Origin: an uncultured Trueperaceae bacterium
Lineage (GTDB): Bacteria; Deinococcota; Deinococci; Deinococcales; Trueperaceae
Length of the DNA stretch: 64,000 nucleotides
NCBI GenBank assembly: GCA_963739805.1
Contig: CAVUBJ010000005.1
Span: 21,163-85,162 of the forward strand
Direction of reading: 5' to 3'
A program made the translations under genes and the position numbers. Below the pieces are notes generated by a model. That model made no database searches, was not told the origin of the DNA, and saw only the letters and a list, made by a program, of their open reading frames with translations. Below are positions 5,147 through 55,413 of this stretch, one piece after another; positions within the stretch are counted from its first letter, which is position 1, and each line of letters opens with the position of its first letter.

Positions 5147-5168
5147 CCCAAGGCCTCGCCGGTTCCGC
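5147..5168 (-). terminator. perfect 9-bp GC stem-loop between rpsO and pnp (rpsO terminator or pnp leader structure)
   Basis: ggcgaggcc-ccaa-ggcctcgcc in the 216-bp rpsO-pnp intergenic region. No U tract. Confidence 0.35.
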
Positions 5169-5251
5169 GGGTCGTGCCCCTTGCGGTCGCGTTCGGGTCG
5201 CGGTGTGTCGGCACTCGACGGCGGGGTGCGGTCGACGTGGGTTCTCGGCCC

Positions 5252-5521: not shown

Positions 5522-5715
5522 GGTAGATAACCAACCTTCCTAGGAGTGGGCTCCGGAGCGGATCCGTGGGATAGAGTCGATGCCGCACCAGACCTCCAAC
5601 CTTCACAATCTAGCACACCGTGCGGCGGCGTCCAAGGCGGCGGGTTACGGCGCGCGCCGCCGCCCGGGCGCCCGCGCCGCGGCGCGGCGGCCGTGCCGGG
5701 CGCTATCCTCGCCAC

Positions 5716-6138: not shown

Positions 6139-6156
6139 GGGCCGCTCACGCGTGCT

Positions 6157-10344: not shown

Positions 10345-10408
10345 GGGGGCGGGGCCGGGACCATTTGGGTCCCGGCCCCGCCCCGGAGCCGATGGCTGGC
10401 GTGCGCCC

Positions 10409-24865: not shown

Positions 24866-25258
<393 letters not shown>

Positions 25259-32477: not shown

Positions 32478-32541
32478 GTGCGCCGCCCGTCCCCGGGTCG
32501 CGCGCCGGCGCGCGACCCGGGGACGGGCGGCCTCGCGGCTC

Positions 32542-39979: not shown

Positions 39980-40126
39980 GGGGGCGCTCGCGCGCTCGAT
40001 CGCGCACGCCCGCCACGTGAGCGAGGGGGCCGCGGGGCATGCCGACGGAGGCGCCCCGCCGGGCCCGCGGCCGGCCGGCGGTTTTGCCTTTCTCACGGCC
40101 CGTGGCTATCATGGTGCGCGGACCCC

Positions 40127-40576
40127 ATGGCGACTCTCAGGAATCGACGCGCAACTTTCGACTACGAACTGCTCGAACGCTTCGAGGCGGGCCTCCAGCT
40201 CCGGGGCAGCGAGGTGAAGTCGCTGCGGCAGGGGGGCGGCTCGTTGGCCGAGGCGTACGCCCGCGTCGAGGGCGGTGAGGTGTACCTCGAGGGGATGACC
40301 ATCCCCGCCTACACCGAGGCGAGCTACAACAATCACGAGCCCCTGCGCCGCCGCAAGCTGCTCCTCAACCGCCGCGAGATCGAGACCATCCAACGCGGCC
40401 TCGAGCGCAAGGGGCTGACGCTGGTGCCGCTGGCGCTGTACTTCAAGGGGGGCTGGGCCAAGGTGGAGATCGCCCTCGCGCGCGGCAAGAAGCTGCACGA
40501 CAAGCGCCGGGACGAGGCCAAGAAGGACGCCCGGCGCGAGATCGAACGCGCGCTCTCCCGGCGCGGCGACGCGTGA
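40127..40576 (+). CDS. smpB: SsrA-binding protein
   Basis: NRRATFDYELLERFEAG...GSEVKSLR...KLLLNRREI. A TTGCCT-N17-TATCAT promoter lies 14 nt upstream of the ATG; no SD. Confidence 0.95.
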   Translation: MATLRNRRATFDYELLERFEAGLQLRGSEVKSLRQGGGSLAEAYARVEGGEVYLEGMTIPAYTEASYNNHEPLRRRKLLLNRREIETIQRGLERKGLTLVPLALYFKGGWAKVEIALARGKKLHDKRRDEAKKDARREIERALSRRGDA

Positions 40577-41961
40577 GCGCGCGCCTGCGCCTCGCCCTCG
40601 TGCCGGCGCTGCTGGCGTGCCTGGCCGCCGTGGCGCCGGCTGCCGCGCAGCCCGCGCTGGTCGTCAACGGCGTGCCGGTCCCGGGCAACACCACCGAGCT
40701 CGTCGCGGGTACCAGCTACGCGCCCGCCGCCGCCCTCGCGCACGCCCTCGGGGCGGAGTCGTTCGCCGACGCTCAGCGCACGGTGCTCACGCTCAAGCTG
40801 GGCGGTCATGTGCTGCAGGCCACCATCCGCGGGGACGCCGGAGCGGCGTCCCAGGGCGGCCTGCAACTCGACGGCCGCCCGTTGTCCGGACCGGGCGCGC
40901 TCCAGAACGGCCCGGAGATCTTCCTGCCGGTGAAGCCCGTGGCGGAGGCCTTGGGCGGGCGGGTGGCGTACCTCGCCGAGCGCCAGACCGTGGTGGTGGT
41001 GCAGCCGCGGGCACGGCTGACGGGCATGCAGTACCAGCGGGCGCCGGGGGAGGAGCGGCTGGTGCTCCGCCTGAGCGCCCCGGTGCGCACCTCCACCTAC
41101 CTCAACGAGCCCGTCAACACGTTGGAGATCCACCTCGAGCGCAGCGACCTGTCCGCCGCCGTGTTGCCCGTGGAGGGCACGGACTTCGTCCGCGCCTCCG
41201 CCGCCGGCGTCGGAGGGGCCGTCAACGTCAAGGTGCAGCTCCAGCCCGGCGTCGGCTACCGCAGCTACGCCCTGCCCGATGGCACGGGCTTCGAGCTGGT
41301 GGTGAGCTTCTCGCGCACGCCTAGCGACGCGACCTCGAACGCCTCGGGGACGATCGTGCTCGACCCCGGGCACGGCGGTGAGGATCCGGGCCTGCGCTTC
41401 CCCGGCTACGCCAGCGAGGCGTCGCTCACGCTGGCGTTCAGCCAACAGCTCCAGGCGGCGCTCCAGGCGCGCGGCTTCGACGTGCGGCTCACGCGGGACG
41501 CCGACGTGAACGTGCCGCCCGAGCGCCGCTCGGCCGACGGCATCGGCGCCGACCTGTACCTCTCCATCCACGGCGCCGCCCTCCCGCCCGGCCAGTACCA
41601 TGCCTACTACCTGGCGGACGCCGACGGCCTCGACTCCCTGCAGATGGCCATCCGGGCGAACGCCCAGGGCGCCGTGCAGAGACAGACCACCGACAGCCTG
41701 CGGCGCCGGATCCTGCTCGATCTGGTGCCGGATCTCGACGTCGGACGCCGCTTCGCCGACGCCCTGGGTGCCCAGCTCTTCCAGGCCGCGGGCTTCCGCA
41801 CCAGCGACACGGCGGGCGCCCCCCTCTACGTCCTGGGTGGGGCCGCCGGTCGCGGCGTCCTGCTGGAGTTCAGTCCGGAGGATCTCGCCTCCCGGGACCT
41901 TCCCGCTACGCTGGCCGCCGCCCTCGCCGCCGTGCTCAGCGCCGGTGGCGCGGCACCGTGA
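40573..41961 (+). CDS. N-acetylmuramoyl-L-alanine amidase (AMIN/N-terminal domain plus Amidase_3)
   Basis: Signal peptide; IVLDPGHGGEDPG and LYLSIHGAA Amidase_3 motifs. GTG start overlaps the smpB stop. Confidence 0.85.
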   Translation: MSARLRLALVPALLACLAAVAPAAAQPALVVNGVPVPGNTTELVAGTSYAPAAALAHALGAESFADAQRTVLTLKLGGHVLQATIRGDAGAASQGGLQLDGRPLSGPGALQNGPEIFLPVKPVAEALGGRVAYLAERQTVVVVQPRARLTGMQYQRAPGEERLVLRLSAPVRTSTYLNEPVNTLEIHLERSDLSAAVLPVEGTDFVRASAAGVGGAVNVKVQLQPGVGYRSYALPDGTGFELVVSFSRTPSDATSNASGTIVLDPGHGGEDPGLRFPGYASEASLTLAFSQQLQAALQARGFDVRLTRDADVNVPPERRSADGIGADLYLSIHGAALPPGQYHAYYLADADGLDSLQMAIRANAQGAVQRQTTDSLRRRILLDLVPDLDVGRRFADALGAQLFQAAGFRTSDTAGAPLYVLGGAAGRGVLLEFSPEDLASRDLPATLAAALAAVLSAGGAAP

Positions 41962-42521
41962 GCCGTCCCGGTCCCGAAGGCGAGCGTCGCTGGCTGCGCC
42001 TGTTGGCCGCCCCACAGGTGCTCATCGCCGGCCTGCTCGCGCTGGCCGGCATCGCCTTCCTCGTGGCGGGCGGCGCGGCGCGCGTGGCGCCGGCGGCCCG
42101 CGTCAGCATCGCCCCGCCGGACGATAGCGCCAAGCGCACCGACGAGGTGCGGCTGATCCTGGTCGACGCCGACGGCCTCGAACGCCCGCGTTTCGTGAGC
42201 GTCTCCCTACCCGGGGCGCGCGACGCGCGCCTGCACGCCATCCTCGACGCGCTGCGCTCGGCCATGATCGGGGACGGCGGCTGGCCGCAGAATCTGCCTA
42301 CGCCCGGCGTGTTCGTCGAGGACGTCAACCGGCGGGCCGTGGCGGTGCTGGACATCCGCAGCGATGCGCCGGTGGCGGTCAGCGTGGGGCAGGAGCTTCA
42401 GCTCCTGCGGTCGCTGCGCGAGACCGTCCTCGCCAACGACGTCGACGAGGTCCGGTTCCTGCGAGACGGGCGCCCCGCTCGGACGCTGCTCGGCCACGTG
42501 GCGGTGGACTCCGGCCTGTGA
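41958..42521 (+). CDS. GerMN domain protein
   Basis: TM anchor, then a GerMN-like domain (VRLILVDADGLERPRFVSVSLPG...). Position immediately after the amidase, as in Deinococcus-Thermus genomes. GTGA overlap. Confidence 0.65.
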   Translation: MSRPGPEGERRWLRLLAAPQVLIAGLLALAGIAFLVAGGAARVAPAARVSIAPPDDSAKRTDEVRLILVDADGLERPRFVSVSLPGARDARLHAILDALRSAMIGDGGWPQNLPTPGVFVEDVNRRAVAVLDIRSDAPVAVSVGQELQLLRSLRETVLANDVDEVRFLRDGRPARTLLGHVAVDSGL

Positions 42522-42557
42522 CCGTCCACCGAGCCGACGGCGCGGCCGGGGCTCGTC

Positions 42558-43856
42558 TCAGGGATAGAGGCGCGTGAGCATGCGCGGGAAGGGCACGACC
42601 TCGCGGAGGTGGCGCGCCCCCGTGATCCACGCCAGGGTCCGTTCGAGGCCGATCCCGAAGCCGGAGTGCGGCACGCTGCCGTAGCGGCGGAGGTCCAGGT
42701 ACCAGGCGAAGGCCTCCTCGGGCAACCCGTGCTCGCGGATGCGGCTGCGCAGCAGCGCCTCGTCGTGGATGCGCTGGGAGCCCCCGATGAGCTCGCCGTA
42801 GCCCTCCGGGGCGAGCATGTCGTCGCACAGCACGCGGGTCGGGTCCCCAGCCAGCGGCTGCATGTAGAACGCCTTGGTCTTGGTGGGCCACTTCTCCACC
42901 AGCACGGGGCGGTCGAAGCGCTCACCCAGGATGGTCTCGTGAGGCGCGCCGAAGTCCTCGCCCCAGGCGAGCGGCTCCCCGTGCTCGGCCAGGATCTCGA
43001 GGGCGCGGTCGTAGCTCAGCCGGGGGAAGTCACCGTTGGCCGTCGGCTCGAGCCTCGCCACATCGCGCTCGAGCATGTCGAGCTCGGGCCGCCGCCGCTC
43101 GAGCACGCGTTCGACGAGGTACTGCAGCAAAGCCTCCTGCAGCGCCATGTTGCCCTCGTGCTCGAGGAAGGCGACCTCCGGCTCCACCATCCAGAACTCC
43201 AGCAGGTGGCGGCGGGTCTTGCTCTTTTCGGCGCGGAAGGCGGGCCCGAAGGTGTAGACCTTGCCGAAGGCGAGCGCGCCCGCCTCGGCGTAGAGCTGGC
43301 CCGACTGCGACAGGTAGGCGTTGTCCTGCTCGAAGAGGTTGATCTCGAACAGATTGGTGGTGCCCTCGACCGCCGTGGACATGAAGAACGGAGCGTCGAA
43401 GCGCACGAAGCCGCGCTCCCCGAAGAAGTCGTGGATGGCCCGCTCGAGCTCGTCCCGGATGCGCAGGATCGCCCACGGTGTGCGGTGCCGCAGGTACAGG
43501 TGGCGGTGCTCGAAGAGGAAGTCGACGCCGTGCTCCTTGGGCGTGATGGGGTAGTCGACCGTGGCGGACACCACGCGCACGTCCCGGAGCCCGAGTTCGA
43601 CGCCGCTGGGCGCCCGGGCATCGGCGCGCACCTCCCCCGTCACGACCACGCTGGTCTCCTGGGTGAGCCCCTTGGCGAGCTCGAAGCGCTCGTCGCCCAC
43701 CTCGCTGCGTACGACGACGCCCTGCACGAACCCGCTCCCGTCGCGGAGCTGGAGGAAGGCGATCTTGCCGCTCGAGCGGACGTTGGTGACCCAGCCGGCC
43801 ACCTCCACGGTGTCGCCTTGGTGGCGCGGCAGCAGGTCGATCGGGATCGGAGCCAT
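42558..43856 (-). CDS. asnS: asparagine--tRNA ligase
   Basis: Class II aaRS motifs [21 protein letters not shown] and [13 protein letters not shown]-terminal OB fold. Start [10 protein letters not shown]; the 43 aa upstream in the track ORF was rejected. Confidence 0.9.
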
Positions 43857-43923
43857 GGCGCCGAGTCTACCAGGGGCGCTGGGGCTGCCCGGCGCGGCGC
43901 GCGGAGGCGCCGAGGGGCGCGGT

Positions 43924-44739
43924 TCAGGCGGCGTGGGGCTGCAGCTGCAGGGCACGCTCGAGCGCCTCGACGACGCCGCACTCATCGACGTCCCCCACCA
44001 CCTCCGAGAAGCGTTCGATGAGCTCGGGCGCGCTGTTGGCCATGATGACCGGGTGCCCGACGACGTCGAGCATGGCCACGTCCCCGAGGCTGTCGCCCAC
44101 CGCCATCACGTCGCGTAGGTCGACCTTGAGGACCTCGACCAGGGCGCGCACCGCGCTGGCCTTGGAAACGCCCTCGCGCGTGACGCTCACGAAGGCCGTG
44201 TCCCCGAGCGCGGGGCTGGTGGCGGTGGACACCTGCACGCCCGGGACGGGGATGTCGGCCACCTCGCTCGCGAGCGCGATCGGCACCACCCACTGGGCGC
44301 GCACCACCGGCTCGTTCTCCGCCACGTCCTCGAGGTCGCGCTTGATGGCCGTGACGCCGATCATCCTGGCGTGGGCCTCGCTCATCGAGGTCTTGCGCTC
44401 CACGAACAGGTTGCTGGGGGTGTACAGCTCCAGCACGTAGCCGCGCTTGCGGGCGTGCTCGATGAGCGTGCGGGCCGCCGCCTCCTTGAGGGCCGATGCC
44501 TTGAGCGTGTCGCCGGCAGGGTAGGCGACGTGCGCGCCGCTCTGGAAGATGTGCGGCGAGTTCGGCCCGAGGCGCTGCGCCACGCGCATGGCGACCCCGA
44601 AGCCGGGTCGGCCGGTGCACACCACCAGCTTCACGCCCGCCTCGCGGGCTCGTTCGGCGGCGTCCCACACGCAGGTACGTACCTGCCCGTCGGACCCGAT
44701 GATGGTGCCGTCGAGGTCGAGGATGATCAAGGGGATCAT
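43924..44739 (-). CDS. HAD-IIB (Cof-like) family hydrolase
   Basis: [10 protein letters not shown] (DxDGT), VCTGRP, a C-terminal GDSLGD motif. ATG overlaps the aspS stop. The 570-aa upstream part of the track ORF is junk. Confidence 0.8.
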
Positions 44740-46517
44740 GCCGGCTCCGCCTCCCGCAGGCGCAGCCCGAGCTCCTCGAGCTGTGCGTCGTCGAGCGGTG
44801 AGGGCGCCCCCGTCAGGGGATCGGCGCCGCGTTGGTTCTTCGGGAAGGCGATCACGTCGCGCAGGCTCGAGCTCTTGCTGAGCAGCATCACCAGCCGGTC
44901 GAGGCCCCAGGCGATGCCCCCGTGTGGCGGTGCCCCGTGCGCCAACGCCTCCAGGAAGAAGCCGAAGCGTTGCTGCGCCTCGGCCTCGCTGAAGCCGAGC
45001 GCACGGAACATCCGCCGCTGCACGTCCAGGCGGTGGATACGCAGGCTGCCGCCGCCGATCTCGTTGCCGTTGAGCACCAGGTCGTAGGCGTGCGCTCGGA
45101 CGCTTCCCGGGTCGCGCTCGAGGGCGTCGAGGTCCTCGTCGCGCGGAAGCGTGAAGGGGTGGTGCATGTAGGTCCACCCTCCGCCCTCGGCCTCCTGCTC
45201 GAGCAGCGGGAAGTCCACCACCCAGAGGAAGGCGAGGGCATCGGGGTCCAGCGCCAACCCGAGGATCTCGGGGAGACGGGTGCGCACGGCACCGAGCGCG
45301 GTGCAGGCGAGCGCCCAGGCGTCGGCCACGAGCAACAGCACGTCGCCGGGCTGCTGCGCCACGGCGGCGAGGCCCGCGCGCTCGCCGTCCCCCAGGAACT
45401 TCGCCACCGGGCCCGAGAAGCCGGCCTCGGTACGCCGCAACCACGCCAGCCCCCGGGCGCCGTAGCGCTTGGCGTGGGCCTCGAGCTCCGCGAGCACCTT
45501 GCGGCTGAGCGCCTCGGCCTGCTCCGCGGGCACCCGCAGCGCCTTGACCACCCCGCCGGCGTCGAGCGCCCCCGCGAACCCGCGGAACTCCGTGCCGTGC
45601 AGGGCGGCGGAGACGTCGGCGAGCTCGAGGCCGAAGCGTATGTCGGGCTTGTCGCTGCCGAAGCGGTCCATCGCCTCGCGGTACCCCAGCCGGGGGAACG
45701 GCGTGGCGATGTCGCGCCCCACCGCGGCCTCGACCACCGCCCGCATCAACCCCTCGTTGAGCTCGAGCACGTCGCCCTCCTCGACGAACGCCATCTCGAT
45801 GTCGAGCTGGGTGAAGTCGGGCTGACGGTCGGCGCGCAGGTCCTCGTCCCGGAAGCAGCGCGCCACCTGGAAGTAGCGGTCGACGCCCGCCATCATCAGC
45901 ATCTGCTTGAACAGCTGCGGCGACTGGGGCAAGGCGTAGAAGGCACCGGGTGCGCTGCGGGCCGGCACCACGAAATCGCGCGCCCCCTCCGGGGTCGATC
46001 GCGTGAGCAGCGGGGTCTCCACCTGCACGAAGCCACGCGCGTCGAGGTAGTCCCAGATCGCCTTGGTGACGCGGTGCCGGAGCAGCAACGGCTGCAACGC
46101 CGATGGGCGACGCAGGTCGAGGTATCGGTGCCGGAGGCGGAGCTCCTCGCTCACTTCGCGGGCGTCGATGCTGCCGTCGACCAGGAACGGGGGCGTGGCG
46201 GCGGGGGAGAGCACCTCGAGCCGGCCGGCGACGACCTCGATCTCGCCCGTCGGGCTGCGGTCGCTCCGCTGCCCCTGCGGGCGCACGCGCACCTCGCCCG
46301 CTACCTCCACCACGAACTCGGCCCGCAGCCCCTCGGCGGCGCGGAAGGCGTCTTCGTTGTCGGGCTCGACGACGATCTGGGTGAGTCCCTCGCGGTCGCG
46401 CAGGTCGAAGAAGATCAGGCCGCCGAGATCGCGACGCCGATTCACCCACCCCTGGAGCAGCACCGTGCGGGAGGCATGCGAGGCGCGGAGCGCCCCGCAG
46501 GTATGGGTCCGTCTCAT
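44736..46517 (-). CDS. aspS: aspartate--tRNA ligase
   Basis: RTHTCGALR, class II motifs FRDEDLRADRQPDFTQLD and GLDRLVMLL; GAD insertion domain. Confidence 0.95.
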   Translation of the reverse strand: MRRTHTCGALRASHASRTVLLQGWVNRRRDLGGLIFFDLRDREGLTQIVVEPDNEDAFRAAEGLRAEFVVEVAGEVRVRPQGQRSDRSPTGEIEVVAGRLEVLSPAATPPFLVDGSIDAREVSEELRLRHRYLDLRRPSALQPLLLRHRVTKAIWDYLDARGFVQVETPLLTRSTPEGARDFVVPARSAPGAFYALPQSPQLFKQMLMMAGVDRYFQVARCFRDEDLRADRQPDFTQLDIEMAFVEEGDVLELNEGLMRAVVEAAVGRDIATPFPRLGYREAMDRFGSDKPDIRFGLELADVSAALHGTEFRGFAGALDAGGVVKALRVPAEQAEALSRKVLAELEAHAKRYGARGLAWLRRTEAGFSGPVAKFLGDGERAGLAAVAQQPGDVLLLVADAWALACTALGAVRTRLPEILGLALDPDALAFLWVVDFPLLEQEAEGGGWTYMHHPFTLPRDEDLDALERDPGSVRAHAYDLVLNGNEIGGGSLRIHRLDVQRRMFRALGFSEAEAQQRFGFFLEALAHGAPPHGGIAWGLDRLVMLLSKSSSLRDVIAFPKNQRGADPLTGAPSPLDDAQLEELGLRLREAEPA

Positions 46518-46574
46518 GCGGTCGAGCTTATCAGACCCCCGAGGACCCGCGGGCCGCCGCGCGGACGGCGGGCG

Positions 46575-47837
46575 TCAGCCGAGCGCCGCGCGCAGGGTGG
46601 ACTCCAGCTCGCCCTCGGGCACCTCGCGCTGATCGCCGCTGTCGAGCTGCTTGAGCTGGATGGTGCCGTGCGCACGCTCCCGCTCCCCGCGCAGGCCGGC
46701 GAAACGGGCGCCGCTGCGGTCGGCGTCGCGCAACCCCTTGCCGGGATTGCGGCGCACGTAGGCGTACTCGACGTGCCACCGGCGGCGCAGGCGCGCGGCC
46801 AGGGCGGCCACCTCCGGCACCGCCGCGTCGTCCATCGGAACCAGGAACACCGCCGGACGCGGCGCCTCGTCGGCCCTCACGCCCTCCTCCGCCATGGCGT
46901 CGAGGACCCGCTCGATGCCCAGGGCCCAGCCCACGCCGGGAAGGGCGGGACCGCCGAGGCTCTCGATGAGCCCGTCGTAGCGGCCCCCGCCGCCCAGGGC
47001 CGACTGGGCGCCGATCCCGCCGTAGTGGGACTCGAAGGCCGTCCTGCGGTAGTAGTCGAGCCCCCGCACGATGGCGGGGTCGATCTCGTAGGGGATCCCC
47101 CAGTCGTCCAGGTAGACCTGGACCTGCTCGAGGTGGGCGCGCGCCGCGGCGCCCACCATGTCCAACGGCCGCTTGAGGCCGTCCAGGAGCGCCTGGTCGC
47201 CGGCGTCCTTGCTGTCCAACACCCGCATCGGGTTGAGGCGCAGGCGTTCCTGGCTCGTGGGCGTGAGCTCCGCGCTCCGCGGCGCCAGCGCCTGCCGCAG
47301 GTAGGCGTTGTAGGCCGCGCGGTCCTCGGGATCCCCGACCGAACCGAGCCGCACGTGGTGAGACTTCAGCCCGCAGGCCTCCAGCACGCCGTACAGCAGC
47401 GCGATGGACTCGGCGTCGGCCAGCGCCTGGGGCAGCCCGATGATCTCCAGGTTCACCTGGTGGAACTGGCGGAACCGGCCGCGCTGCACGTTCTCCGCGC
47501 GGAACAGTGGGCCGGAGCTCCACAGCTTGACCGGGCTCGGCAGCGTGTGCATGCCGTGCTCGATGAAGGCGCGCAGCACGCCGGCGGTGAACTCCGGCCG
47601 CAGCGTGAGACTGCGCCCGCCGCGGTCCTCGAAGGTGTACATCTCCTTCTGGACCACCAGGTCGGCGCTCTCGCCGACGGTCTTGGCGAAGACCTCGCTG
47701 TACTCGAACACTGGCGTGCTCAGCCTGCGGGCGCCGCCGCGGCCGAGGACCGACGCCACGGCGCGCTCGAGGTGCGCCCAGGCGGCTTGCTGGTCCGGCA
47801 GGATGTCGTGGGTGCCCTTGACGGCCTGAAGCTTCAT
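46575..47837 (-). CDS. hisS: histidine--tRNA ligase
   Basis: KGTHDILPD, RPEFTAGVLRAF, GGGGRYDGL. Start MKLQAVKG. Confidence 0.93.
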   Translation of the reverse strand: MKLQAVKGTHDILPDQQAAWAHLERAVASVLGRGGARRLSTPVFEYSEVFAKTVGESADLVVQKEMYTFEDRGGRSLTLRPEFTAGVLRAFIEHGMHTLPSPVKLWSSGPLFRAENVQRGRFRQFHQVNLEIIGLPQALADAESIALLYGVLEACGLKSHHVRLGSVGDPEDRAAYNAYLRQALAPRSAELTPTSQERLRLNPMRVLDSKDAGDQALLDGLKRPLDMVGAAARAHLEQVQVYLDDWGIPYEIDPAIVRGLDYYRRTAFESHYGGIGAQSALGGGGRYDGLIESLGGPALPGVGWALGIERVLDAMAEEGVRADEAPRPAVFLVPMDDAAVPEVAALAARLRRRWHVEYAYVRRNPGKGLRDADRSGARFAGLRGERERAHGTIQLKQLDSGDQREVPEGELESTLRAALG

Positions 47838-47914
47838 GGTGGGTGAGTCTACCGCGTGGTGGCCGCGCCGCCGCGCTGGTCCGGGGCCCGGCGGGCGCCG
47901 CGGCGGCACATGGC

Positions 47915-47942
47915 AACGGGGCCGCCCGCCGGCGGCCCCGTT
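47915..47942. terminator. perfect 12-bp GC stem-loop between the convergent-side lipoprotein gene end and the hisS start
   Basis: Sequence aacggggccgcc-cgcc-ggcggccccgtt; no U tract (GC-rich genome). Confidence 0.4.
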
Positions 47943-47962
47943 GCGCCATCTTCAGGAGGCCC

Positions 47963-48325
47963 TCAGGGGAGGTTGGCGGGGACCCCGTTGCTCTTGATAC
48001 CCGCCACGACCACGAAGATGAAGCCCGAGCCGGCCCCCTCCGGGACCGAGAACTCGATGCGCGTGGGCGTCCAGGCGTTGGGGGTGATCTTCATGCCGCC
48101 GTCACCGTTCATGTTGGCGCCGGCGATGACGTAGCTGTCGCTGGCGTTGCCGTTCTGGCCGTCACCGAAGTAGCGGCCCTGCAACACCACCGAGCCGTTG
48201 CCCGCCTGCGGAACCGTCACGGAGACGAGGGTGGGGACCACATTGGTCTCCACCGAAGGGGTGGGGGCGCAGGCGGCCAGCACGACGGCCAGCAACCCGA
48301 GTGGAATCCAGGCAAGACGCTTCAC
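47963..48325 (-). CDS. small lipoprotein (120 aa)
   Basis: GTG start with a GAGGAGG RBS. Lipobox LAAC. Beta-rich IPT/TIG-like body. Confidence 0.6.
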   Translation of the reverse strand: MKRLAWIPLGLLAVVLAACAPTPSVETNVVPTLVSVTVPQAGNGSVVLQGRYFGDGQNGNASDSYVIAGANMNGDGGMKITPNAWTPTRIEFSVPEGAGSGFIFVVVAGIKSNGVPANLP

Positions 48326-48465
48326 GGTGTCCTCCTCGCTGTCCAGAGCGTACGGGCCGTCGCCCTGCGGCGTCAATGGGACTTTTCATAACGATCCGGG
48401 CGCTCCGGCACGGCCCTCCCGCGGCGCCCCGCGGCCCACGCGCGGCCCACGGTACGATACCTCCC

Positions 48466-49047
48466 GTGACCAGCCACTACTTCGCCTACCTCGCCCGCAT
48501 GAAGTTCATCATGCGCTGGGGCCTGATGCGCAACACCCGTGCCGAGAACACCCAGGAGCACAGCATGCAGGTGGCCGTCGTCGCCCACGCGCTGGCGATC
48601 ATCGCCAACCGTCTCTACGGCGGCGACGTCGATCCCGAGAGGACCGCGCTGCTCGCCGTCTACCACGACGCGGAGGAGGTCATCACCGGCGACGTGCCGA
48701 CCCCCATCAAGTACTTCAACCCCCAGATCGCCGAGGCCATGGACGGTATCGAGATGGTCGCCAGGCGGCGCCTGCTGGCGATGCTGCCCGAGGCCCTGCG
48801 CGAGGATTTCGAGGCCCTGTACTTCCACCAGGAAGAGGACGCCGCCGCCTGGCGCCTGGTGAAGGCTGCCGACAAGCTCACGGCGTACCTGAAGTGCGTC
48901 GAGGAGGCCAAGGCGGGCAACGAGGAGTTCAGCCGCGCCGAGCAGGCCATCGCCGCGGATCTGCAGGCCTCCGAGGAGCCGGCCGTGCGCTACTTCCTGG
49001 AGACCTTCGTGCCCAGCTTCCGGCTGACATTGGACGAGCTGAACTGA
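48466..49047 (+). CDS. yfbR: HD-domain 5'-deoxynucleotidase (YfbR-like)
   Basis: VTSHYFAYLARMKFIMRWGLMRN...EHSMQVAVVAHALA...YHDAEEVITGDVPTP, collinear with E. coli YfbR. GTG start 7 nt after a TACGAT -10-like hexamer. Confidence 0.85.
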   Translation: MTSHYFAYLARMKFIMRWGLMRNTRAENTQEHSMQVAVVAHALAIIANRLYGGDVDPERTALLAVYHDAEEVITGDVPTPIKYFNPQIAEAMDGIEMVARRRLLAMLPEALREDFEALYFHQEEDAAAWRLVKAADKLTAYLKCVEEAKAGNEEFSRAEQAIAADLQASEEPAVRYFLETFVPSFRLTLDELN

Positions 49048-49347
49048 GGCGTGCGTCCGCACGAGGGCATGAGCGACGGCCTCGAGGGTCCCGCGCATCG
49101 CGGGTGCCCGCCGGAGCCCCTGGAGACGGTCACGCTGCGCTAGCATGGGCGCGTGCCCGACGGTCGCGCGCGACGAGCTTGCGGCCCCGCGTCCGGTGCC
49201 GGCGCCGCGGTACGCGCCGCGCACGCGCTCGATGTTCGGCCCGGCGCCGACGCCGTGCCTGAGCCCGCCGCGTCGAGCGCGTCCGTCACTGCTTCGCGCG
49301 CAGCGCGGCCGACGCGGGCGGGCCGCGGCCGCCATCCGCAGGCGGAT

Positions 49348-49980
49348 ATGGACGCCGAGCGCCTGCTCGCGCTGCTCGCGCTGCTCGGTGGCCGGGGCAT
49401 CCCAACCTGGATCGACGGTGGATGGTGCGTCGACGCCTTGCTCGGGCGCCAGACGCGCGCCCACGACGACCTCGACCTGGCCGTGGCGCGCGAGGACGTG
49501 GAGCGCCTGTGCGCGGCCCTGGCGGAGGCGGGCTACGCGCCGTGGGATGACGGCACGGCCGGTTCGCGCTGCCCAGACGGCCTGGAGTACCTGGTGGACG
49601 AGCGTGGGCACCAGGTCGACGTGCACCGGGTCAGGTTCACGCCGGACGGGGACGGCGTGCACCGCATGGCGAACGGGGAGGACTGGATCTACCCCGCGCG
49701 CGCGTTCGCCGGCCGCGGCCGCGTACTGGGCCGCGAGGTCGCGTGCCTCGCGGCCGACGTCATGCTGGTGTGCCACACCACCGGCTACGCGCTGGACGCG
49801 GCCCACCGGGCGGACGCGGCGGCGCTGGCCGATGCCTTCGCGCTGCCGCTACCGTCCTTCCGTTGGGCCGAGGACGAGCCTGGCGAGCGCGCGGGGCCCG
49901 GGAACCAGCCGTCCGAGGGCGAGGCAATTGGCGGCGAAGCTGCCGGGGACGGGTCGCCCGGCCGAACAGACGAGGGCTGA
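49348..49980 (+). CDS. ANT(2'')-Ia family nucleotidyltransferase (PF10706-like; possible aminoglycoside nucleotidyltransferase)
   Basis: IPTWIDGGWCVDALLGRQTRAHDDLDL aligns almost residue for residue with ANT(2'')-Ia LPLWIGGGWAIDARLGRVTRKHDDIDL. Acidic Gly-rich C-terminal tail. Start could be as early as GTG 49153. Confidence 0.75.
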   Translation: MDAERLLALLALLGGRGIPTWIDGGWCVDALLGRQTRAHDDLDLAVAREDVERLCAALAEAGYAPWDDGTAGSRCPDGLEYLVDERGHQVDVHRVRFTPDGDGVHRMANGEDWIYPARAFAGRGRVLGREVACLAADVMLVCHTTGYALDAAHRADAAALADAFALPLPSFRWAEDEPGERAGPGNQPSEGEAIGGEAAGDGSPGRTDEG

Positions 49981-50126
49981 GCACCAAGGCCGCCTCGGTC
50001 TGTCACGCGGGCCCCCACGGCCAACATATGAGGCCGCGGCGGCCGGGGGAACCGCGGCCCTCCGGAGTCGCGGCGGCGGCCCCGCTGCGACGCGCGCGCT
50101 CTGATGTGCGCCCACGGGCCGGGGCC

Positions 50127-50372
50127 TTGCGCGGGGAGTACGATGCCCTGTTGTTCCACGGCGAGGACGACGGTCCGGCGTGGCGTTCGGTGAATGCCGC
50201 GGACGCGATCGCCGCCAACCTTACGTGCGCGGAGGAAACCAATGCGGGCAACGAGGAGCTCAGCCCCGCCGAGCAGGCCTTCGCGGCTGATCTCACCGCC
50301 TCCGAGGAGCCGGCCCCCCGCTGCTTCCTGGAGTCCTTCGTGCTCCGCTTCGGGTCGAGGTTGGACGAGTTC
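50127..50372 (+). pseudogene. decayed duplicate of the yfbR 3' end (about 82 codons, no start, stop lost)
   Basis: LRGEYDALLFHGEDDGPAWRSVNAADAIAANLTCAEETNAGNEELSPAEQAFAADLTASEEPAPRCFLESFVLRFGSRLDEF aligns with the yfbR C-terminus (about 60% identity). Embedded in a junk track ORF. Confidence 0.6.
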
Positions 50373-50385
50373 AAGGGACGACGTG

Positions 50386-50420
50386 CACATGTTCACGAGC
50401 GTTGTGCTCGTGAACATGTG
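50386..50420. repeat. perfect palindrome A (15-bp arms, 5-nt spacer)
   Basis: CACATGTTCACGAGC-gttgt-GCTCGTGAACATGTG, immediately after the yfbR remnant and 210 bp upstream of mgtE. Confidence 0.8.
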
Positions 50421-50477
50421 AAAGTTGGCGCCCGGCGGGCCGCATGGGCCTGCGCGTGGCGCGCCCGCCCGCCGGCG

Positions 50478-50507
50478 CTTGACGGCGCGCAGCATCGCGG
50501 CCTAGTG
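50478..50507 (+). promoter_or_regulatory. candidate sigma70-type promoter of mgtE (TTGACG-N18-TAGTGT), about 115-nt leader
   Basis: Hexamer match only; no M-box-like riboswitch recognised in the leader. Confidence 0.3.
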
Positions 50508-50629
50508 TCGCTGGGGTCGTGCCCGGGGCGGGGGAGACCGGCGACGCGCACGACCGGCCGGGTGGGGCACGCCGCGCCCCGCCGGCGAACACTCGCAAGC
50601 GATTCACGCCCTCGGGCGGAGGTGACACG

Positions 50630-52021
50630 ATGGTCCAGGCCCCGGATCTGGAGACGCTGCGCGAGGAGCTCCAGGCGCTGGTGGCGCAGCGCCGCTTCGA
50701 CGTCCTGCGCGAGACGCTGGCGGACATGGAGCCGCCGGACCTTGGCGACGTCATGGACGGCCTGCCGCACGAGGCCGAGGCCGTCGTGTTCCGGGTCCTG
50801 CCCAAGGACCTCGCCGCCCAGACCTTCGAGTACCTGCCGTTCGACGCCCAGGAGCGCCTGCTGAAGGCGATGGGTGACCGCGAGGTGGGGGCGATCCTCA
50901 ACGACATGTCGCCGGACGACCGCACGGCGTTGCTCGAGGAGCTCCCGGGTAAAGTCACCAAGCGCCTGCTCAACCTGCTCACGCCCGAGGAGCGCCACGT
51001 CGCCACGCGCCTGCTGGGCTACCCCGAGGACTCCATCGGCCGTTTGATGACGCCCGATTACGTCGCCATCAAGCCCCACTGGACCGTGGCGGAGGCGCTG
51101 GCGCACGTGCGCGAGTTCGGCCGCGACTCCGAGACGCTCAACGTCGTCTACGTCACCGCCAAGGGGGGCCGACTCGTCGACGACATCCGCATGCGGGAGC
51201 TGCTGCTGGTGGAACCCGAGACGCGGGTCGAGGCCCTGATGGACGAGCAGTTCGTCGCCCTGCTGGCCACCGACGACCAGGAGGAGGCGGTGGCCGTATT
51301 CCGGAGGCTGGACCGTACCGCCCTGCCGGTGACCGACACGGGCGGCATCCTGGTGGGAATCGTGACGGTCGACGACGTCCTGGACGTCGCCGAGGAGGAA
51401 GCCACCGAGGACTTCCAGATGCTCGGCGGCACCGAGGCGCTCGAGGAGCCCTACCTCGACATCGGCATCCCCATGATGGTGCGCAAGCGTGCGGTGTGGC
51501 TCGTGGTCCTGCTGATCGGCGAGATGCTGACCGCCACCGCCCTCGGCTTCTTCGAGCACGAGATCGCCAGCGCCGTTGTGCTGGCGCTGTTCATCCCCCT
51601 GATCATCTCCAGCGGCGGCAACACCGGCTCCCAGGCGGCCACGCTGGTCACACGGGCCATGGCGCTGGGCGAGGTGGGCTTGCGCGACTGGTGGCGGGTG
51701 ATGCGGCGCGAGTTGGTGGCCGGCCTATCCCTGGGCGTGATCCTCGGCACCGTGGGCTACCTGCGCATCGCCGTGTGGGCGCTCGTGTTCGACAGCTACG
51801 GTCCGCACTGGTCGCTCATCGGCCTGACGGTGGCGGTGTCGTTGGTGGGCGTGGTGCTGTGGGGTTCGCTCACGGGGTCGCTGCTCCCCATCCTCCTCAA
51901 GCGACTCGGCGCGGACCCCGCGGCCTCCTCCGCGCCTTTCGTGGCCACCATCGTGGACGTCACCGGCATCGTGATCTTCTTCTCCGTGGCGGCCACGCTG
52001 CTGCGCGGCACCCTCCTGTAG
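50630..52021 (+). CDS. mgtE: magnesium transporter MgtE
   Basis: N-domain, tandem CBS and C-terminal 5-TM domain. GGAGGTG RBS. The 37 aa upstream in the track ORF was rejected. Confidence 0.92.
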   Translation: MVQAPDLETLREELQALVAQRRFDVLRETLADMEPPDLGDVMDGLPHEAEAVVFRVLPKDLAAQTFEYLPFDAQERLLKAMGDREVGAILNDMSPDDRTALLEELPGKVTKRLLNLLTPEERHVATRLLGYPEDSIGRLMTPDYVAIKPHWTVAEALAHVREFGRDSETLNVVYVTAKGGRLVDDIRMRELLLVEPETRVEALMDEQFVALLATDDQEEAVAVFRRLDRTALPVTDTGGILVGIVTVDDVLDVAEEEATEDFQMLGGTEALEEPYLDIGIPMMVRKRAVWLVVLLIGEMLTATALGFFEHEIASAVVLALFIPLIISSGGNTGSQAATLVTRAMALGEVGLRDWWRVMRRELVAGLSLGVILGTVGYLRIAVWALVFDSYGPHWSLIGLTVAVSLVGVVLWGSLTGSLLPILLKRLGADPAASSAPFVATIVDVTGIVIFFSVAATLLRGTLL

Positions 52022-52490
52022 CGCGGCCGCCCACGTAGGGGCGCCCGTGCCGTGGCGCGGCCGTGGTGTGTGCCGGCGTGTCGGTCGGCCGCGCTGTGGC
52101 TGCGCCGCGTGGCGGCGGCTCGCGGCGGCGCGTCGTGTCGGCGCGCGCGTCTGGGTCGATGCGGGTGTCGCCCCGCGCACCCCGGGCCGGGTCCCCCCGG
52201 CAGGCGTCGGCGGTGCTAGACGGAGTGTTATCAAATCTCGCTCGCGCCCCGCAGGTGTCGTCGGGCCGAATACTGCCCGCACCGCCCCCAGCCAGGACGG
52301 GGGAGACGCCCCCTCGCCGGTCGGCGGTGGCGTGCCGCTTCTTGCTCTGGCATGACGCCATGGATCGCGCTGGGGGCGGCGATCCTGCCCATAGCTCGAC
52401 CGTTCGGTATCGTCGGGGTGAACGTTGGCCGGAGCCGTCTGTACGGACGCGCCGTGCGCCCCAGTGCGCCCGAGCGCGCCCGAGCGCGGC

Positions 52491-53474
52491 TCAGTCCGCC
52501 AGGGCGCCGCGCAGGGCGCGCCAGGAGACCTCGGCGTCGGCAGAACGTGCCTCCGCCCGGCGCAGCGTCGCCACCGCGGTCGCGACGTCGGTGAGGCGCC
52601 AGCGGGTGCGGTAGAGGTCCAGCGCGGCGCGCTCCATCGTCGCCGCGGCGCCGGCGGTCCGTCGGTAGGCCCGCCAAGCGGCGAGCCGCCTGCCGAGCAG
52701 CAGGTGCAGGTCGCGCTCCGCCGGTGCCAGGGCCACGGTGTCCCAATCCACCAACGCGAGGCGTGCATTCGGGCCAGCGATCACGTTTCCCGGGTGGGGC
52801 TCGCCGTGGGTCACGACCCAGGGGGAGCCTCGCCGCCGCAACCGGGCGACGCCGGCGTCGTACGCCTGCAGCTCGCGGACCAGGTGACGCGCGCGGGCCT
52901 CGAGGCGGCGGCGGGTGGGCTCGGCGTACGGGCCGGTGGTCCACGGCCTCGCGAGGTCTTCGAGGGCGCGCTCGAGCACGTCGCGCGCCTGCAGCGCGAA
53001 GTCCTCGCGCGGCGCCAGATCGGTCGGGAGGCGTGTGGTGGCCGCGTGCAGGCGTCCGATCGCCGAGGCCAAGCGGCGGCGCTCCCGGGCCGTGCGCGCG
53101 GCACCGAAGCCGCGCGTCGTACCGTACACGAAGGGCGCCAGATGGACGGCGTAGTGGTGACAGAGGCGGCGCAAGGGGACGCCACGGCCGTCGGGTAGCG
53201 GTGCGATCACGAAGCCCAGGTCGGCGCTCTCCCGCAGGGCCATGGCCGTGCGGAGCGCGCGCATCAAGTGGTCGAAGGCGGTGTCGGGGCCGGCGGCGTG
53301 CTTGATCTCGGCAACGCTCACGAAGCCGACCCGACCCGCTGCGTCCATCGCCCGCCAGTGGTACCCACCGAAGCCGACCGGCAGGTGGCGCAGGGTCACC
53401 GGCCGCAGGCCCCACCCCGCGACGAGCTCCTCGGCGAGCCGGGCGGGGTCCAGGTCCGGCGGTGGATCGTGCAC
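52491..53474 (-). CDS. APH/phosphotransferase enzyme family protein (aminoglycoside phosphotransferase-like kinase)
   Basis: Catalytic loop THGEPHPGNVI (HGDxxxxN-like) and LVDWDTVALAPAERD (DWD is the DFG equivalent). Size 327 aa. Substrate unknown. Confidence 0.7.
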   Translation of the reverse strand: MHDPPPDLDPARLAEELVAGWGLRPVTLRHLPVGFGGYHWRAMDAAGRVGFVSVAEIKHAAGPDTAFDHLMRALRTAMALRESADLGFVIAPLPDGRGVPLRRLCHHYAVHLAPFVYGTTRGFGAARTARERRRLASAIGRLHAATTRLPTDLAPREDFALQARDVLERALEDLARPWTTGPYAEPTRRRLEARARHLVRELQAYDAGVARLRRRGSPWVVTHGEPHPGNVIAGPNARLALVDWDTVALAPAERDLHLLLGRRLAAWRAYRRTAGAAATMERAALDLYRTRWRLTDVATAVATLRRAEARSADAEVSWRALRGALAD

Positions 53475-53526
53475 GATCCAGCGTAGCGGACGCGGCGCGA
53501 GCCCGCCGGCGGTGCGGCCGAGCCCC

Positions 53527-53574
53527 TATGTCACGAGCGCACGAGCCGTTCTCTCGTGCGCTCGTGAAACATGT
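53527..53574. repeat. palindrome B, related to palindrome A with a nested inner palindrome
   Basis: ATGTCACGAGCGCACGAG-ccgttctc-TCGTGCGCTCGTGAAACATGTG, about 50 bp upstream of the APH start. Confidence 0.75.
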
Positions 53575-53861
53575 GTTCCGTGGCTCCCCGAGCACGGCTC
53601 CGCGCGCCATCAGGGCCGCCGCTGCGGCCAGGGCCCGTCGCGCTGCGCGGGCGTGTTGCATGCCGCAGCCGGCGCCGAGGGGTCCGCCGGCCGTGGGAGC
53701 GCCCGTGTCGCTGTGCGCCGGAGCCGCCCCGACGGTGCTCATGGGGCCGGTGAGGGTGCGCGGTACGCGGCGCCCCGGCGGCGCCCCGACCCGCGGCGCC
53801 GATCCGGGCGCGCGTGCGGTGCGGGCGTTGCGACGTCGGCCTGGGGCGCTCGGGGTGCGGG

Positions 53862-53903
53862 CGTCGACGACGACCGCCGTCGACGACCGCCGTCGACGCG
53901 ACG
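53862..53903. repeat. 13-bp tandem repeat (cgaccgccgtcga, about 2.5 copies)
   Basis: Direct reading of the non-coding GC-rich stretch. Confidence 0.6.
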
Positions 53904-54075
53904 CTGTGCGGGCCCGTGCACGGGAGCGCGCGGCCGCCGGTGGCGCGCCCGGACGGGCGACCGCCGCCCCGGCACGAGGATCCGCCCGCGATCCGGGGCC
54001 CGGGACCGCGGGGCCCGCGACCCGACCGGCGTACGCGGGGCCGGTGGCAACCCGGCCGGCCACGGCGCGATGCGG

Positions 54076-54120
54076 GGCCGAAGGGTCGGCGAAGGGTCGG
54101 CGAAGGGTCGGCGACGGGTG
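54076..54120. repeat. 11-bp tandem repeat (ggcgaagggtc, about 4 copies, outer copies degenerate)
   Basis: Sequence ggccgaagggtc ggcgaagggtc ggcgaagggtc ggcgacgggtg. Confidence 0.65.
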
Positions 54121-54229
54121 CACTCGAGCGGAGGCACGGCGCCGGGATTCGGAAGCTCGGCGGCGGCGGTCGGCCCGGTAGCGACCCGCGCCGTCCGGAC
54201 GCGCGCGGGTCGAGCCCGAAGGGGTGAAA

Positions 54230-54255
54230 AACCTGATAACTCGTCTTATCAGGTT
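54230..54255. promoter_or_regulatory. AT-rich dif-like recombination site candidate: 10-bp perfect inverted arms around a 6-bp spacer
   Basis: AACCTGATAA-ctcgtc-TTATCAGGTT. The inner ATAA-N6-TTAT geometry matches dif. Lies 170 bp upstream of the Xer-family recombinase in about 75% GC DNA. Confidence 0.4.
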
Positions 54256-54271
54256 CCGCTATCCTGAACGC

Positions 54272-54427
54272 ATGAAGCGCTCCGACGACTCCCCACGCCG
54301 CCGCGGCCGGTCCTCGCGGCCGGCCCGTGCCCACACCGCGGAGTGCCCGCTCCGTCGCTCGGTGCCGCCCTCGCGCCGCCCCATGCCCCGATGCTACGAC
54401 GGCCGGGCCGACGGAGGCGACGCGTGA
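54272..54427 (+). CDS. small Arg-rich hypothetical ORF whose TGA overlaps the recombinase GTG
   Basis: 51 aa from ATG 54272 (67 aa if GTG 54224, which would include the inverted repeat). GC3-rich; no SD; no homology recognised. Confidence 0.2.
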   Translation: MKRSDDSPRRRGRSSRPARAHTAECPLRRSVPPSRRPMPRCYDGRADGGDA

Positions 54428-55413
54428 GCACGCTCGAGCGCTACCAGGGGGACGCACTGAACCGTGCCGAGGCGTGGGCCAACCTCTCGCCGGAGGCGCT
54501 GCGGCGCCGCGCCATGGTCGCCGCCAATCAGCGCGATCCCGAGGCGCTGTGGGGGCTCACCGAGGCGTACCTGTTCCTGCACGGCTCGAAGGGTGCGCGC
54601 GTGAGCCGGCACACGCTGCGCACCTACCGGCGCGGCCTGCTGGATCTGCTCCGGGGCTGGCCGCACGAGAACCTGTTGCGTCCCAGCCGTGACGCGGGCG
54701 TGCTCTACATCCGCCGCTTGGAGACGACACCGGTCGACTCGGACGGTGCCCTGCCGCAGCCCGCCACGCTCCAGGTCAAGCTGGCCGCTGCACGGACCGT
54801 GTACCACGCGCTGCGCTGGGCCGGGGCCACCGAGGCGCGCCCCTTCGAGGACGTGCGCGTCGCCAAGGACGCCACGCCTCCCTGGGAGAAGCGCCGCCCC
54901 TACGGCGACGGCGAGGTCGACGCGCTGCTCGAGCTGGCCAGCGTGGCCGAACGCGTGGTCGTGCTGCTCGGCGCCCACGCCGGCCTGCGCGTGAGCGAGA
55001 TGACGGCGCTGCGCTGGGAGGACGTGGACCTGCGCGGCACAAGCCTCCACGTGCGCTCGGGCAAGGGCGGCAAGAGCGCCCACGTGCGCATGACCCGCCG
55101 CCTGCGCCAGTCGCTGGGCGCGCTCCGCGCCGAGGGCAGCACGCCGGGCCGTCAACGCGAGGCCGCCCTGGTGCTGCCCTGGGGCACCGATCACACCCGC
55201 AAGCGCTTCCGCAGGTTGTGTGCCCGCGCCGGCGTCGAGTACGCCTCGGCCGGCGTGCACGGCCTTCGACACGGCGCTGGCACCCGCTACTACCGGCAGA
55301 CGCACGACCTCGGCCGGGTCGCGGCGCACCTGCGCCACGCCGACATCCAGACCACGCGCATCTACGCGAAGATCGACCGGGCCACTATCCAGGACGACAT
55401 CGAGGACTGGTGA
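54424..55413 (+). CDS. XerC/XerD-family tyrosine recombinase
   Basis: Box I GLRVSEMTALRWEDVDL. Box II HGLRHGAGTRYY...HLRHADIQTTRIYAKI with catalytic R..HxxR..Y. GTG start with a GGAGG RBS 9 nt upstream. Confidence 0.85.
   Translation: MSTLERYQGDALNRAEAWANLSPEALRRRAMVAANQRDPEALWGLTEAYLFLHGSKGARVSRHTLRTYRRGLLDLLRGWPHENLLRPSRDAGVLYIRRLETTPVDSDGALPQPATLQVKLAAARTVYHALRWAGATEARPFEDVRVAKDATPPWEKRRPYGDGEVDALLELASVAERVVVLLGAHAGLRVSEMTALRWEDVDLRGTSLHVRSGKGGKSAHVRMTRRLRQSLGALRAEGSTPGRQREAALVLPWGTDHTRKRFRRLCARAGVEYASAGVHGLRHGAGTRYYRQTHDLGRVAAHLRHADIQTTRIYAKIDRATIQDDIEDW

Follow-up and report, generated by a model that had tools for sequence, protein, structure and literature searches.

We describe a palindromic element of 35 bp in a 64,000-nucleotide (nt) stretch of DNA, here called the window, from an uncultured Trueperaceae bacterium of the phylum Deinococcota (GenBank contig CAVUBJ010000005.1). 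Two related copies of the element, palindromes A and B, lie upstream of the Mg2+ channel gene mgtE and upstream of a gene for an APH(9)-like phosphotransferase, respectively. The element has the architecture CACNNG-N2-CACGAG-N7-CTCGTG-N2-CNNGTG, in which two direct CAC-hexamers face two inverted ones across a 7-nt centre with a period of 8 bp, and it recurs upstream of mgtE in related genomes. Judged by its sequence and distribution, it appears to be a lineage-specific palindromic cis element of a known sort, with a function that is unproven; it is evidently rare and restricted to some Trueperaceae. In the reading that we tentatively favour, the element is bound by a multimeric, sequence-specific DNA-binding protein, with mgtE and the APH-like gene as its targets. 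If the element is indeed an operator, it would define a small undescribed regulon in an almost uncultured, radiation-resistant lineage, in which an acquired aminoglycoside-kinase-like gene would be tied to the uptake of Mg2+; the 35-mer would then offer a bait for the regulator. A literature search found no description of the element.

Structure and rarity of palindromes A and B

Palindrome A reads CACATGTTCACGAGC-gttgt-GCTCGTGAACATGTG, with 15-bp arms free of mismatches around a 5-nt loop. Palindrome B (Table 1) contains a perfect 15-bp inner stem at 53531-53567 with a 7-nt loop, its outer ATGT/ACAT pair being set off by a 2-nt bulge; its 35-bp core at 53532-53566 (CACGAG cg CACGAG ccgttct CTCGTG cg CTCGTG) is flanked by ATGT and ACATGTG. 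Compared with A, which has four hexamer units, B has six, with one additional 8-bp unit on each arm. Within the window the 12-mer ATGTTCACGAGC is confined to A, and TTCACGAG occurs twice in A, once in B and nowhere else; in short form, the arm pattern of the element is TTCACGAG-N7-CTCGTGAA. The end of A lies 209 nt upstream of the ATG of mgtE, and the end of the B core lies 57 nt upstream of the GTG of the APH-like gene. Folded as RNA, A and B reach -26 to -37 kcal/mol, with z scores of -5.8 to -6.8.

The initial annotation had described A and B as related long palindromes and had held that perfect 15-bp arms are rare by chance at high G+C content. The analysis bears out the first claim, and the 8-12-mers common to both are found only in them. 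The second is likewise borne out, as none of 20 Markov shuffles of the window produced a perfect stem of at least 15 bp with a loop of 3-11 nt, the longest stem in the shuffles being 14 bp. At 73% G+C, the window holds ~20 other distinct sites with stems of at least 9 bp. Among its hairpins are two unrelated, G+C-rich and perfect ones at gene ends, at 10346-10384 and 32482-32531, with stems of 17 and 23 bp and without T tracts, which are probably the usual terminator type of the source genome. Because of these longer stems, it is their common, relatively A+T-rich sequence, and not stem length alone, that distinguishes A and B. High-GC genomes are rich in hairpins, as these other sites illustrate, and A and B might therefore be chance or purely local structures, such as gene-specific terminators, with no common origin. 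We regard this as refuted: the 8-12-mers that they have in common occur nowhere else in the window, their arms recur in three further genomes or contigs, and two more have the same architecture at the orthologous site.

Conservation of the element across related loci

Relatives of the locus were chosen as contigs carrying close YfbR homologues (loci L091, L092, L093/94/95, L117, L118, L122 and L132); the source names of these homologues include Trueperaceae and Deinococcales metagenome-assembled genomes (MAGs). Synteny of mgtE with yfbR extends to all seven related loci, from which we conclude that mgtE is ancestral at this position. In L092, L093/94/95 and L117, yfbR is followed by mgtE across a spacer of 170-210 nt. 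Besides the window, L132, L117 and L093 have the element upstream of mgtE, and L092 has it in weaker form; of five related Trueperaceae contigs with yfbR next to mgtE, four show its architecture. Within a subclade of Trueperaceae it has thus been retained directly upstream of the mgtE promoter region. Given that the same 35-bp architecture recurs in the mgtE-upstream spacers of relatives, A is an orthologous, conserved element that forms part of the ancestral yfbR-mgtE spacer. Hexamers of the form CAC[GA]A[GA] are also enriched in mgtE-upstream spacers beyond the 35-mer itself, as in L092, which has six against 0.5 expected.

Where accessory genes have inserted between yfbR and mgtE (a nucleotidyltransferase gene in the window, a UvrA2-like gene in L132), the element is always on the mgtE side. 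In L132 the element is separated from yfbR by the UvrA2-like gene (4170-6944), which was inserted exactly at the left edge of the element; that edge, GTGCACATGT, is still present on the side nearer yfbR. The closest relative, L091 (83% amino acid identity), is collinear with the window from 38747 to 52028 and contains yfbR, the nucleotidyltransferase gene and mgtE, with neither a yfbR fragment nor a palindrome at the locus; its similarity to the window ends directly after mgtE. In L118 and L122, yfbR and mgtE are translationally coupled, without spacer or element, through the overlap or junction sequences TGATG (L118 2196-2202) and TGACATG (L122 3580-3586). This coupling of a 5'-deoxynucleotidase to a Mg2+ channel is a functional pairing for which we have no explanation.

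Two further copies, each in an unrelated gene context, were recovered from sequence collections: one in a Trueperaceae MAG (L060) and one in a metagenome record of 72% G+C (L088). The window, L132, L060 and L088 have the same 9-bp arms, TTCACGAGC/GCTCGTGAA, around 5-nt loops that are unrelated (GTTGT, GAATC, TTCCC and AGATT, respectively). The N7 and 8-bp spacings are constant in nine of nine copies, all of which are intergenic and 35-49 bp in size. In 167 kb of Trueperaceae DNA, the skeleton CAC-N5-CAC-N10-GTG-N5-GTG is matched without mismatch only by A, B, L060, L088, L093/94/95 and L117. The L132 copy, scanned later, has one skeleton mismatch in its outer-left hexamer, CGCACG, and a perfect CACGAG-N7-CTCGTG core. 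In L091, the priA-smpB spacer (1241-1275) contains the sequence AACGCC at CACGAG gttctga TTTGTG aa CTCGTG, one mismatch from the skeleton, which could be a degenerate copy or a chance match, ~0.6 one-mismatch hits being expected by chance in the scanned DNA.

A candidate protein-binding site

The element is a dyad in which half-sites and their spacing are constrained and the spacer sequence is free, which is the pattern of a protein site, and it is conserved upstream of orthologous genes in related genomes, as operators are. In L117 and L093 all four CAC/GTG triplets are kept in copies that fold no better than shuffled sequences (z scores of -0.75 and +0.2). Mismatches in the arms show no bias of G.U over A.C (9 vs 7), the test applied for selection at the RNA level. 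The acquired APH(9)-like gene is preceded both by B, the expanded copy, and by a related pair of hexamers, ATCGTG and CACGAT, over its start. Two further points favour a protein site: the extra hexamers around the 35-mer in mgtE-upstream spacers, and the perfect state of the copy beside mgtE against the decayed state of its duplicate past intact yfbR (described below). We propose that a multimer, for instance a dimer of dimers, would read the CAC/GTG triplets, and that its binding would modulate transcription of mgtE and of the APH-like gene. The element would serve in activation or looping from upstream, or else as a roadblock that halts read-through out of the preceding genes. That the perfect copies can form hairpins would then be a by-product of dyad symmetry, and the hairpin may help to keep the arms identical by template-directed correction.

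Several observations weigh against a protein-binding site. The only -10-like hexamer (TAnnnT) in the mgtE-upstream spacers of L117, L132 and the window is 86-100 bp downstream of the element's centre, a long distance for a repressor operator. L091, the closest relative, has lost the element yet keeps mgtE, L118 and L122 have coupled yfbR and mgtE with no element, and the L060 copy occupies a 47-nt gap between convergent genes, a position that is terminator-like and not promoter-like. An 8-bp hexamer period is unusual for helix-turn-helix regulators, no cognate protein is assigned to the element, and the hexamer skeleton was defined after the data were seen. Finally, the arms show symmetric double changes (TT/AA vs CG/CG), with a covariation score above that of 493 of 500 shuffles, which suggests that pairing may matter.

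Hairpin function and copy number

The main rival reading, which we consider possible though unlikely, is that the element is a low-copy element of the repetitive extragenic palindromic (REP) type, or a hairpin, that acts as single-stranded DNA or RNA. On this account it would be a terminator or insulator lacking a U tract that keeps read-through from yfbR, the nucleotidyltransferase gene or the UvrA2-like gene from reaching the mgtE promoter; in L060 it would terminate transcription in both directions. The uniformity of its stem would stem from a hairpin-recognising protein, either a REP-associated tyrosine transposase (RAYT)-like enzyme or an RNA-binding protein, or from template-directed correction. 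The two readings, protein site and REP or terminator hairpin, are not mutually exclusive; the CIRCE operator, compared below, acts in both ways.

The folding data bear on this rival in both directions. The hairpins of A, B, L060 and L088 are very stable (z scores of -3.4 to -6.8), but the orthologues in L117, L093 and L092 have lost their folding potential and retain the hexamers with their exact spacing; moreover, the 5-nt length of the loop is fixed in every copy, which a hairpin does not need, and the sense strand shows no G.U bias. The symmetric 8-bp additions on both arms of B relative to A are what hairpin-templated mutation would be expected to produce, and the covariation score, a modest 0.207 against 0.145 in shuffles (equalled or exceeded in 7/500), also speaks for pairing.

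Gene context is similarly divided. Stop codons precede the start of the element by 2-32 nt in L060, L117 and L093, and the former stop codon of yfbR', the yfbR fragment next to A, precedes it by 7 nt. These four sites have a same-strand gene stop just upstream, which L088 and B lack. The L060 copy sits between convergent genes, as befits a terminator, but the L088 copy sits between divergent genes, where none is needed; convergent, divergent and tandem contexts all occur, as they do for REPs. Neither strand of A or B has a T run to accompany the stable hairpin of an intrinsic terminator, and a terminator scan made no call at either; the other gene-end hairpins of the window, however, also lack T tracts, and a missing U tract is therefore not disqualifying.

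Copy number was assessed by scanning sequence collections with two strict patterns, the source genome being represented by the 64-kb window. A pattern covering A and B had 79 single hits, close to the chance expectation, in one genome for each of 185,579 species; read by eye, one of these was a true relative, L060, and the rest look like chance or coding matches. A second pattern gave ten hits among 241 million metagenome records, again with one true relative, L088. The 21 hits in a scan of viral contigs all had low or unrelated G+C content, did not extend past the pattern and are attributed to chance. With three copies in the 64-kb window, and only the orthologous site in ~100 kb from relatives, these numbers speak against a REP family of high copy number, as far as strict-pattern searches of these collections show. 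One extra true copy per whole-collection scan fits a small regulon. Nor was a gene for a RAYT (Y1 transposase, Y1_Tnp) found in the annotated part of the window (~38-64 kb) or in the related loci. Should the element prove to be a low-copy hairpin or terminator only, it would be an ordinary finding.

Gene insertion at the yfbR-mgtE junction

The locus is a clean natural record of the entry of accessory genes into a conserved operon junction. Between 48790 and 50420, a direct duplication of ~300 bp, comprising the 3' end of yfbR and the element, flanks the nucleotidyltransferase gene. The first repeat includes a third, degenerate copy of the element, E', which starts 12 nt past the stop codon of intact yfbR and can be aligned column for column with A; the copy beside mgtE, A, is perfect. 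The second repeat includes the pseudogene fragment yfbR', with 61% amino acid identity to intact yfbR and a 105-nt core at 86% nucleotide identity. The stop codon of the fragment has changed from TGA to GGA with the reading frame kept, and A begins 10 nt past the fragment, which is 7 nt past the former stop. This arrangement would result from either a Campbell-type integration or a duplication with subsequent insertion. When the 3' and 5' parts of intact yfbR were tested for the phylogenetic discordance that donor DNA would leave, no clear signal was obtained. L091 retains the nucleotidyltransferase gene but has lost the yfbR fragment.

The nucleotidyltransferase gene, present in L091 and absent from more distant relatives, and the APH-like gene are accessory. 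The best database homologues of the APH-like protein are at most 52% identical, and on this basis its gene is taken as a lineage-specific acquisition; for the conservation of B upstream of APH-like orthologues, there is nothing closer than 52% identity to compare. Gene content 3' of mgtE is different in every relative examined. The 3.1-kb block containing mgtE and the APH-like gene is not a unit, and its bracketing by A and B looks incidental. The order of events that we reconstruct runs from a coupled yfbR-mgtE pair to a spacer with the element and then to independent insertions of two different resistance-like genes, with a pseudogene relic left behind. Accessory genes have landed at the yfbR-mgtE junction more than once: a UvrA2-like gene in L132 and the nucleotidyltransferase gene in the window and L091, with the APH(9)-like gene of the window just past mgtE.

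These insertions invite the explanation that the element is itself a recombination or gene-capture site, with 11-bp arms and a 7-bp centre forming cores for the neighbouring Xer-like recombinase or a similar enzyme, and the yfbR-mgtE junction an insertion platform for accessory genes analogous to attC, dif and pdif modules. The form ATGTTCACGAG-N7-CTCGTGAACAT does fit an 11-7-11 core, B has a tyrosine recombinase gene 850 bp away, three resistance-like genes adjoin copies of the element (Lnu/ANT-like, flanked by E' and A; UvrA2-like, in L132; APH(9)-like, at B), and the region downstream of mgtE differs in every relative. The central 7 nt, however, differ in all copies (CGTTGTG in A, CCGTTCT in B, CGACGGC in E'), which would make partner sites incompatible; no attC R''/R' consensus is present, and mgtE itself is not a mobile gene. 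The 250-bp duplication of the yfbR 3' end around the nucleotidyltransferase insertion is better explained by homologous, Campbell-type integration. Furthermore, there is no recombinase among the called genes of L132 and L091 or the scanned open reading frames (ORFs) of L060 and L088, and the recombinase of the window falls under all family cut-offs. We therefore hold this explanation to be improbable, and very doubtful in its broader form, in which the palindrome marks a chromosomal hot spot of Trueperaceae where resistance-like genes are inserted by a hairpin- or recombinase-dependent mechanism. It would be of greater interest if true: we know of no integron- or pdif-like platform described in Deinococcota.

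The initial annotation had offered three accounts of the palindromes, and these can now be weighed together. As relics of cassette boundaries around mgtE and the APH-like gene they fail, mgtE being ancestral and syntenic, A lying in the ancestral spacer and the 7-nt centres of A and B differing. As REP-like hairpins of high copy number they find no support: the hairpins are real, but the many dispersed copies at gene ends, which by the initial annotation would have pointed to an ordinary REP-like family, were not seen in the strict-pattern scans of the collections. A shared operator is supported by the retention of the element upstream of mgtE in relatives and by the second copy before the APH-like gene, and is weakened by its distance from the -10 hexamer, its absence from L091 and the L060 copy between convergent genes. 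It appears to be the best of the three, and is unproven.

Comparison with known systems

The element has the size and location of a REP, that is, an imperfect palindrome of 20-40 bp outside genes. Like the REPs and bacterial interspersed mosaic elements (BIMEs) of Enterobacteria and Pseudomonas, it is an imperfect palindrome of ~35 bp, strictly extragenic and found in any gene orientation, with a conserved stem and a variable loop, and its copies persist and decay at orthologous sites. REPs number tens to hundreds per genome, and a RAYT gene associated with them is typically flanked by REP copies. Unlike them, the element is very low in copy wherever this is measurable, it has a fixed loop length and a fixed hexamer spacing, no RAYT gene is present in the annotated part of the window, and its degenerate copies hold periodic CAC triplets and not pairing.

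The controlling inverted repeat of chaperone expression (CIRCE) is the operator of HrcA, TTAGCACTC-N9-GAGTGCTAA; it is present at a handful of loci per genome and can work on DNA, as an operator, and also in mRNA, as a hairpin. The element resembles CIRCE in its 9-bp perfect inverted arms, its spacer of fixed length and free sequence, and its conservation across species. It differs in sequence and spacer (N5 between 9-mers, N7 between hexamers), in its extra outer hexamers, in lacking a chaperone-gene neighbour and in having no assigned cognate repressor. Operators built as arrays of hexamers to octamers include the Fur box, read as GATAAT arrays, the 8-bp met-box arrays of MetJ and the heptads of the omega repressor. 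As in these, short units recur with a period of 6-8 bp in direct and inverted orientation, and the number of units varies by site; the sequence of the element is unrelated to theirs, and no gene of the ribbon-helix-helix or Fur family is linked to it.

With pdif modules and integron attC sites the element has in common resistance-like genes flanked by related palindromes and a tyrosine recombinase gene nearby. It differs from them in that its centres are not common between copies, no R''/R' or XerC/XerD arm consensus is present, mgtE, the gene that is bracketed, is ancestral, and a homologous duplication of 250 bp accompanies the single insertion that can be dated. An integron attC site was rejected, A and B lacking R'' RYYYAAC and R' GTTRRRY, which CGTGAAC and GTTCACG do not fit. 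So was a tyrosine-recombinase core (dif, pdif or attC), there being no identical centre of 6-8 bp and mgtE not being a mobile unit absent from relatives.

The M-box (ykoK) Mg2+ riboswitch is also a cis element upstream of mgtE; our element differs in lying upstream of the likely promoter and in having one copy that precedes a gene unrelated to Mg2+, and an M-box (RF00380) was rejected, no Rfam match being found near A or B at the gathering threshold or at E values up to 5. A parS (ParB) site was rejected too: the contiguous 16-bp TGTTNCACGTGAAACA is unmatched in the window with up to 3 mismatches, and the arms of the element, which resemble its half-sites, are 13 bp apart. LexA boxes, HspR-associated inverted repeats (HAIR), PadR sites (ATGT-N8-ACAT), ArsR/SmtB sites, NrdR boxes and PhoP boxes were rejected by half-site sequence or orientation. 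The motif of the radiation/desiccation response (RDRM) in promoters of radiation-induced genes of Deinococcus, the operator of DdrO, is a palindrome of 17 bp (PMC8533742). At 35 bp, and with arms different from those of the RDRM, the element was not assigned to this class.

Gene content of the locus

Genes were called from frame analysis of G+C content at third codon positions (GC3) and from Pfam and NCBIfam searches, which covered the part of the window at ~38-64 kb (Table 1). The protein product of the nucleotidyltransferase gene scores under every resistance-family cut-off.

Table 1. Features of the yfbR-mgtE region of the window, and copies of the element in related sequences
Feature	Position or context	Strand	Description
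yfbR-like 5'-deoxynucleotidase gene, intact	48466..49047	+	193 aa
E', third copy of the element, degenerate	49060..49094	+	CACGAG gg CATGAG cgacggc CTCGAG gg TCCCGC
Lnu/ANT(2'')-like nucleotidyltransferase gene, inserted	49348..49980	+	210 aa as called
yfbR' pseudogene fragment	50124..50375	+	last 84 codons of yfbR
Palindrome A	50386..50420	.	CACATG tt CACGAG cgttgtg CTCGTG aa CATGTG; orthologous mgtE-upstream element
Candidate mgtE promoter	50479..50508	+	TTGACG-N18-TAGTGT; our own reading, under the threshold of the scan tool
mgtE	50630..52021	+	463 aa; MgtE_N, CBS and MgtE domains; exact match to called gene, ATG at 50630
APH(9)-Ib-like phosphotransferase gene	52491..53474	-	327 aa as called; distant homology
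18-bp perfect palindrome	53463..53480	.	TGGATCGTGCACGATCCA; two abutting related hexamers, ATCGTG and CACGAT, over the APH-like GTG start
Palindrome B	53527..53575	.	TATGT-CACGAGCGCACGAG-ccgttct-CTCGTGCGCTCGTGAAACATGTG
Gene-free stretch between B and recombinase gene	53576..54423	.	~850 nt, 80-83% G+C; no credible ORF, no Pfam hit
Tyrosine recombinase gene	54424..55413	+	329 aa as called; distantly Xer-like
L132 copy	mgtE-upstream		CGCACG tt CACGAG cgaatcg CTCGTG aa CTCGTG
L117 copy	yfbR-mgtE spacer		CACAAG cg CACGAG cagatac CTTGTG ac TTCGTG
L093 copy	yfbR-mgtE spacer		CACGAA cg CACGAG ctaaggc CATGTG cc AATGTG
L092 copy	mgtE-upstream spacer		weaker version of the element
L060 copy	Trueperaceae MAG; 47-nt gap between convergent genes		CACTCGTTCACGAGC-ttccc-GCTCGTGAACATGTG
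L088 copy	metagenome record, 72% G+C; between divergent genes		CACATGTTCACGAGC-agatt-GCTCGTGAAAGTGTG

The N-terminus of 27 amino acids encoded downstream of the L088 copy had no hit in a Pfam scan, and its putative UvrD-like nature comes from a reading of the motif. Between the convergent mgtE and APH-like genes, ~470 nt (52022-52490) contain no gene; the gap after mgtE in L091 is comparable in size and without sequence similarity to it. A TACGCT hexamer 5 nt upstream of the GTG of the APH-like gene suggests by its position a leaderless transcript.

The recombinase scores under every NCBIfam cut-off and resembles integrases of Deinococcus plasmids; a BLAST search of plasmids gave gene-level similarity only, for mgtE and for these integrases. 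The gene-free stretch that separates its gene from B may represent what is left of an island, or a gene that has decayed. Within that stretch, at 54230-54255, ~170 nt upstream of the recombinase start at 54424, lies a perfect A+T-rich palindrome, AACCTGATAA-ctcgtc-TTATCAGGTT, which may be the regulatory or attachment site of the recombinase gene itself. On its 3' side, the recombinase gene is followed by a CHRD-domain gene and then by an SMC gene. Elsewhere in the window, a gene for bacterial class A RNase P RNA was identified at 24867-25253 on the minus strand, with a score of 258 bits.

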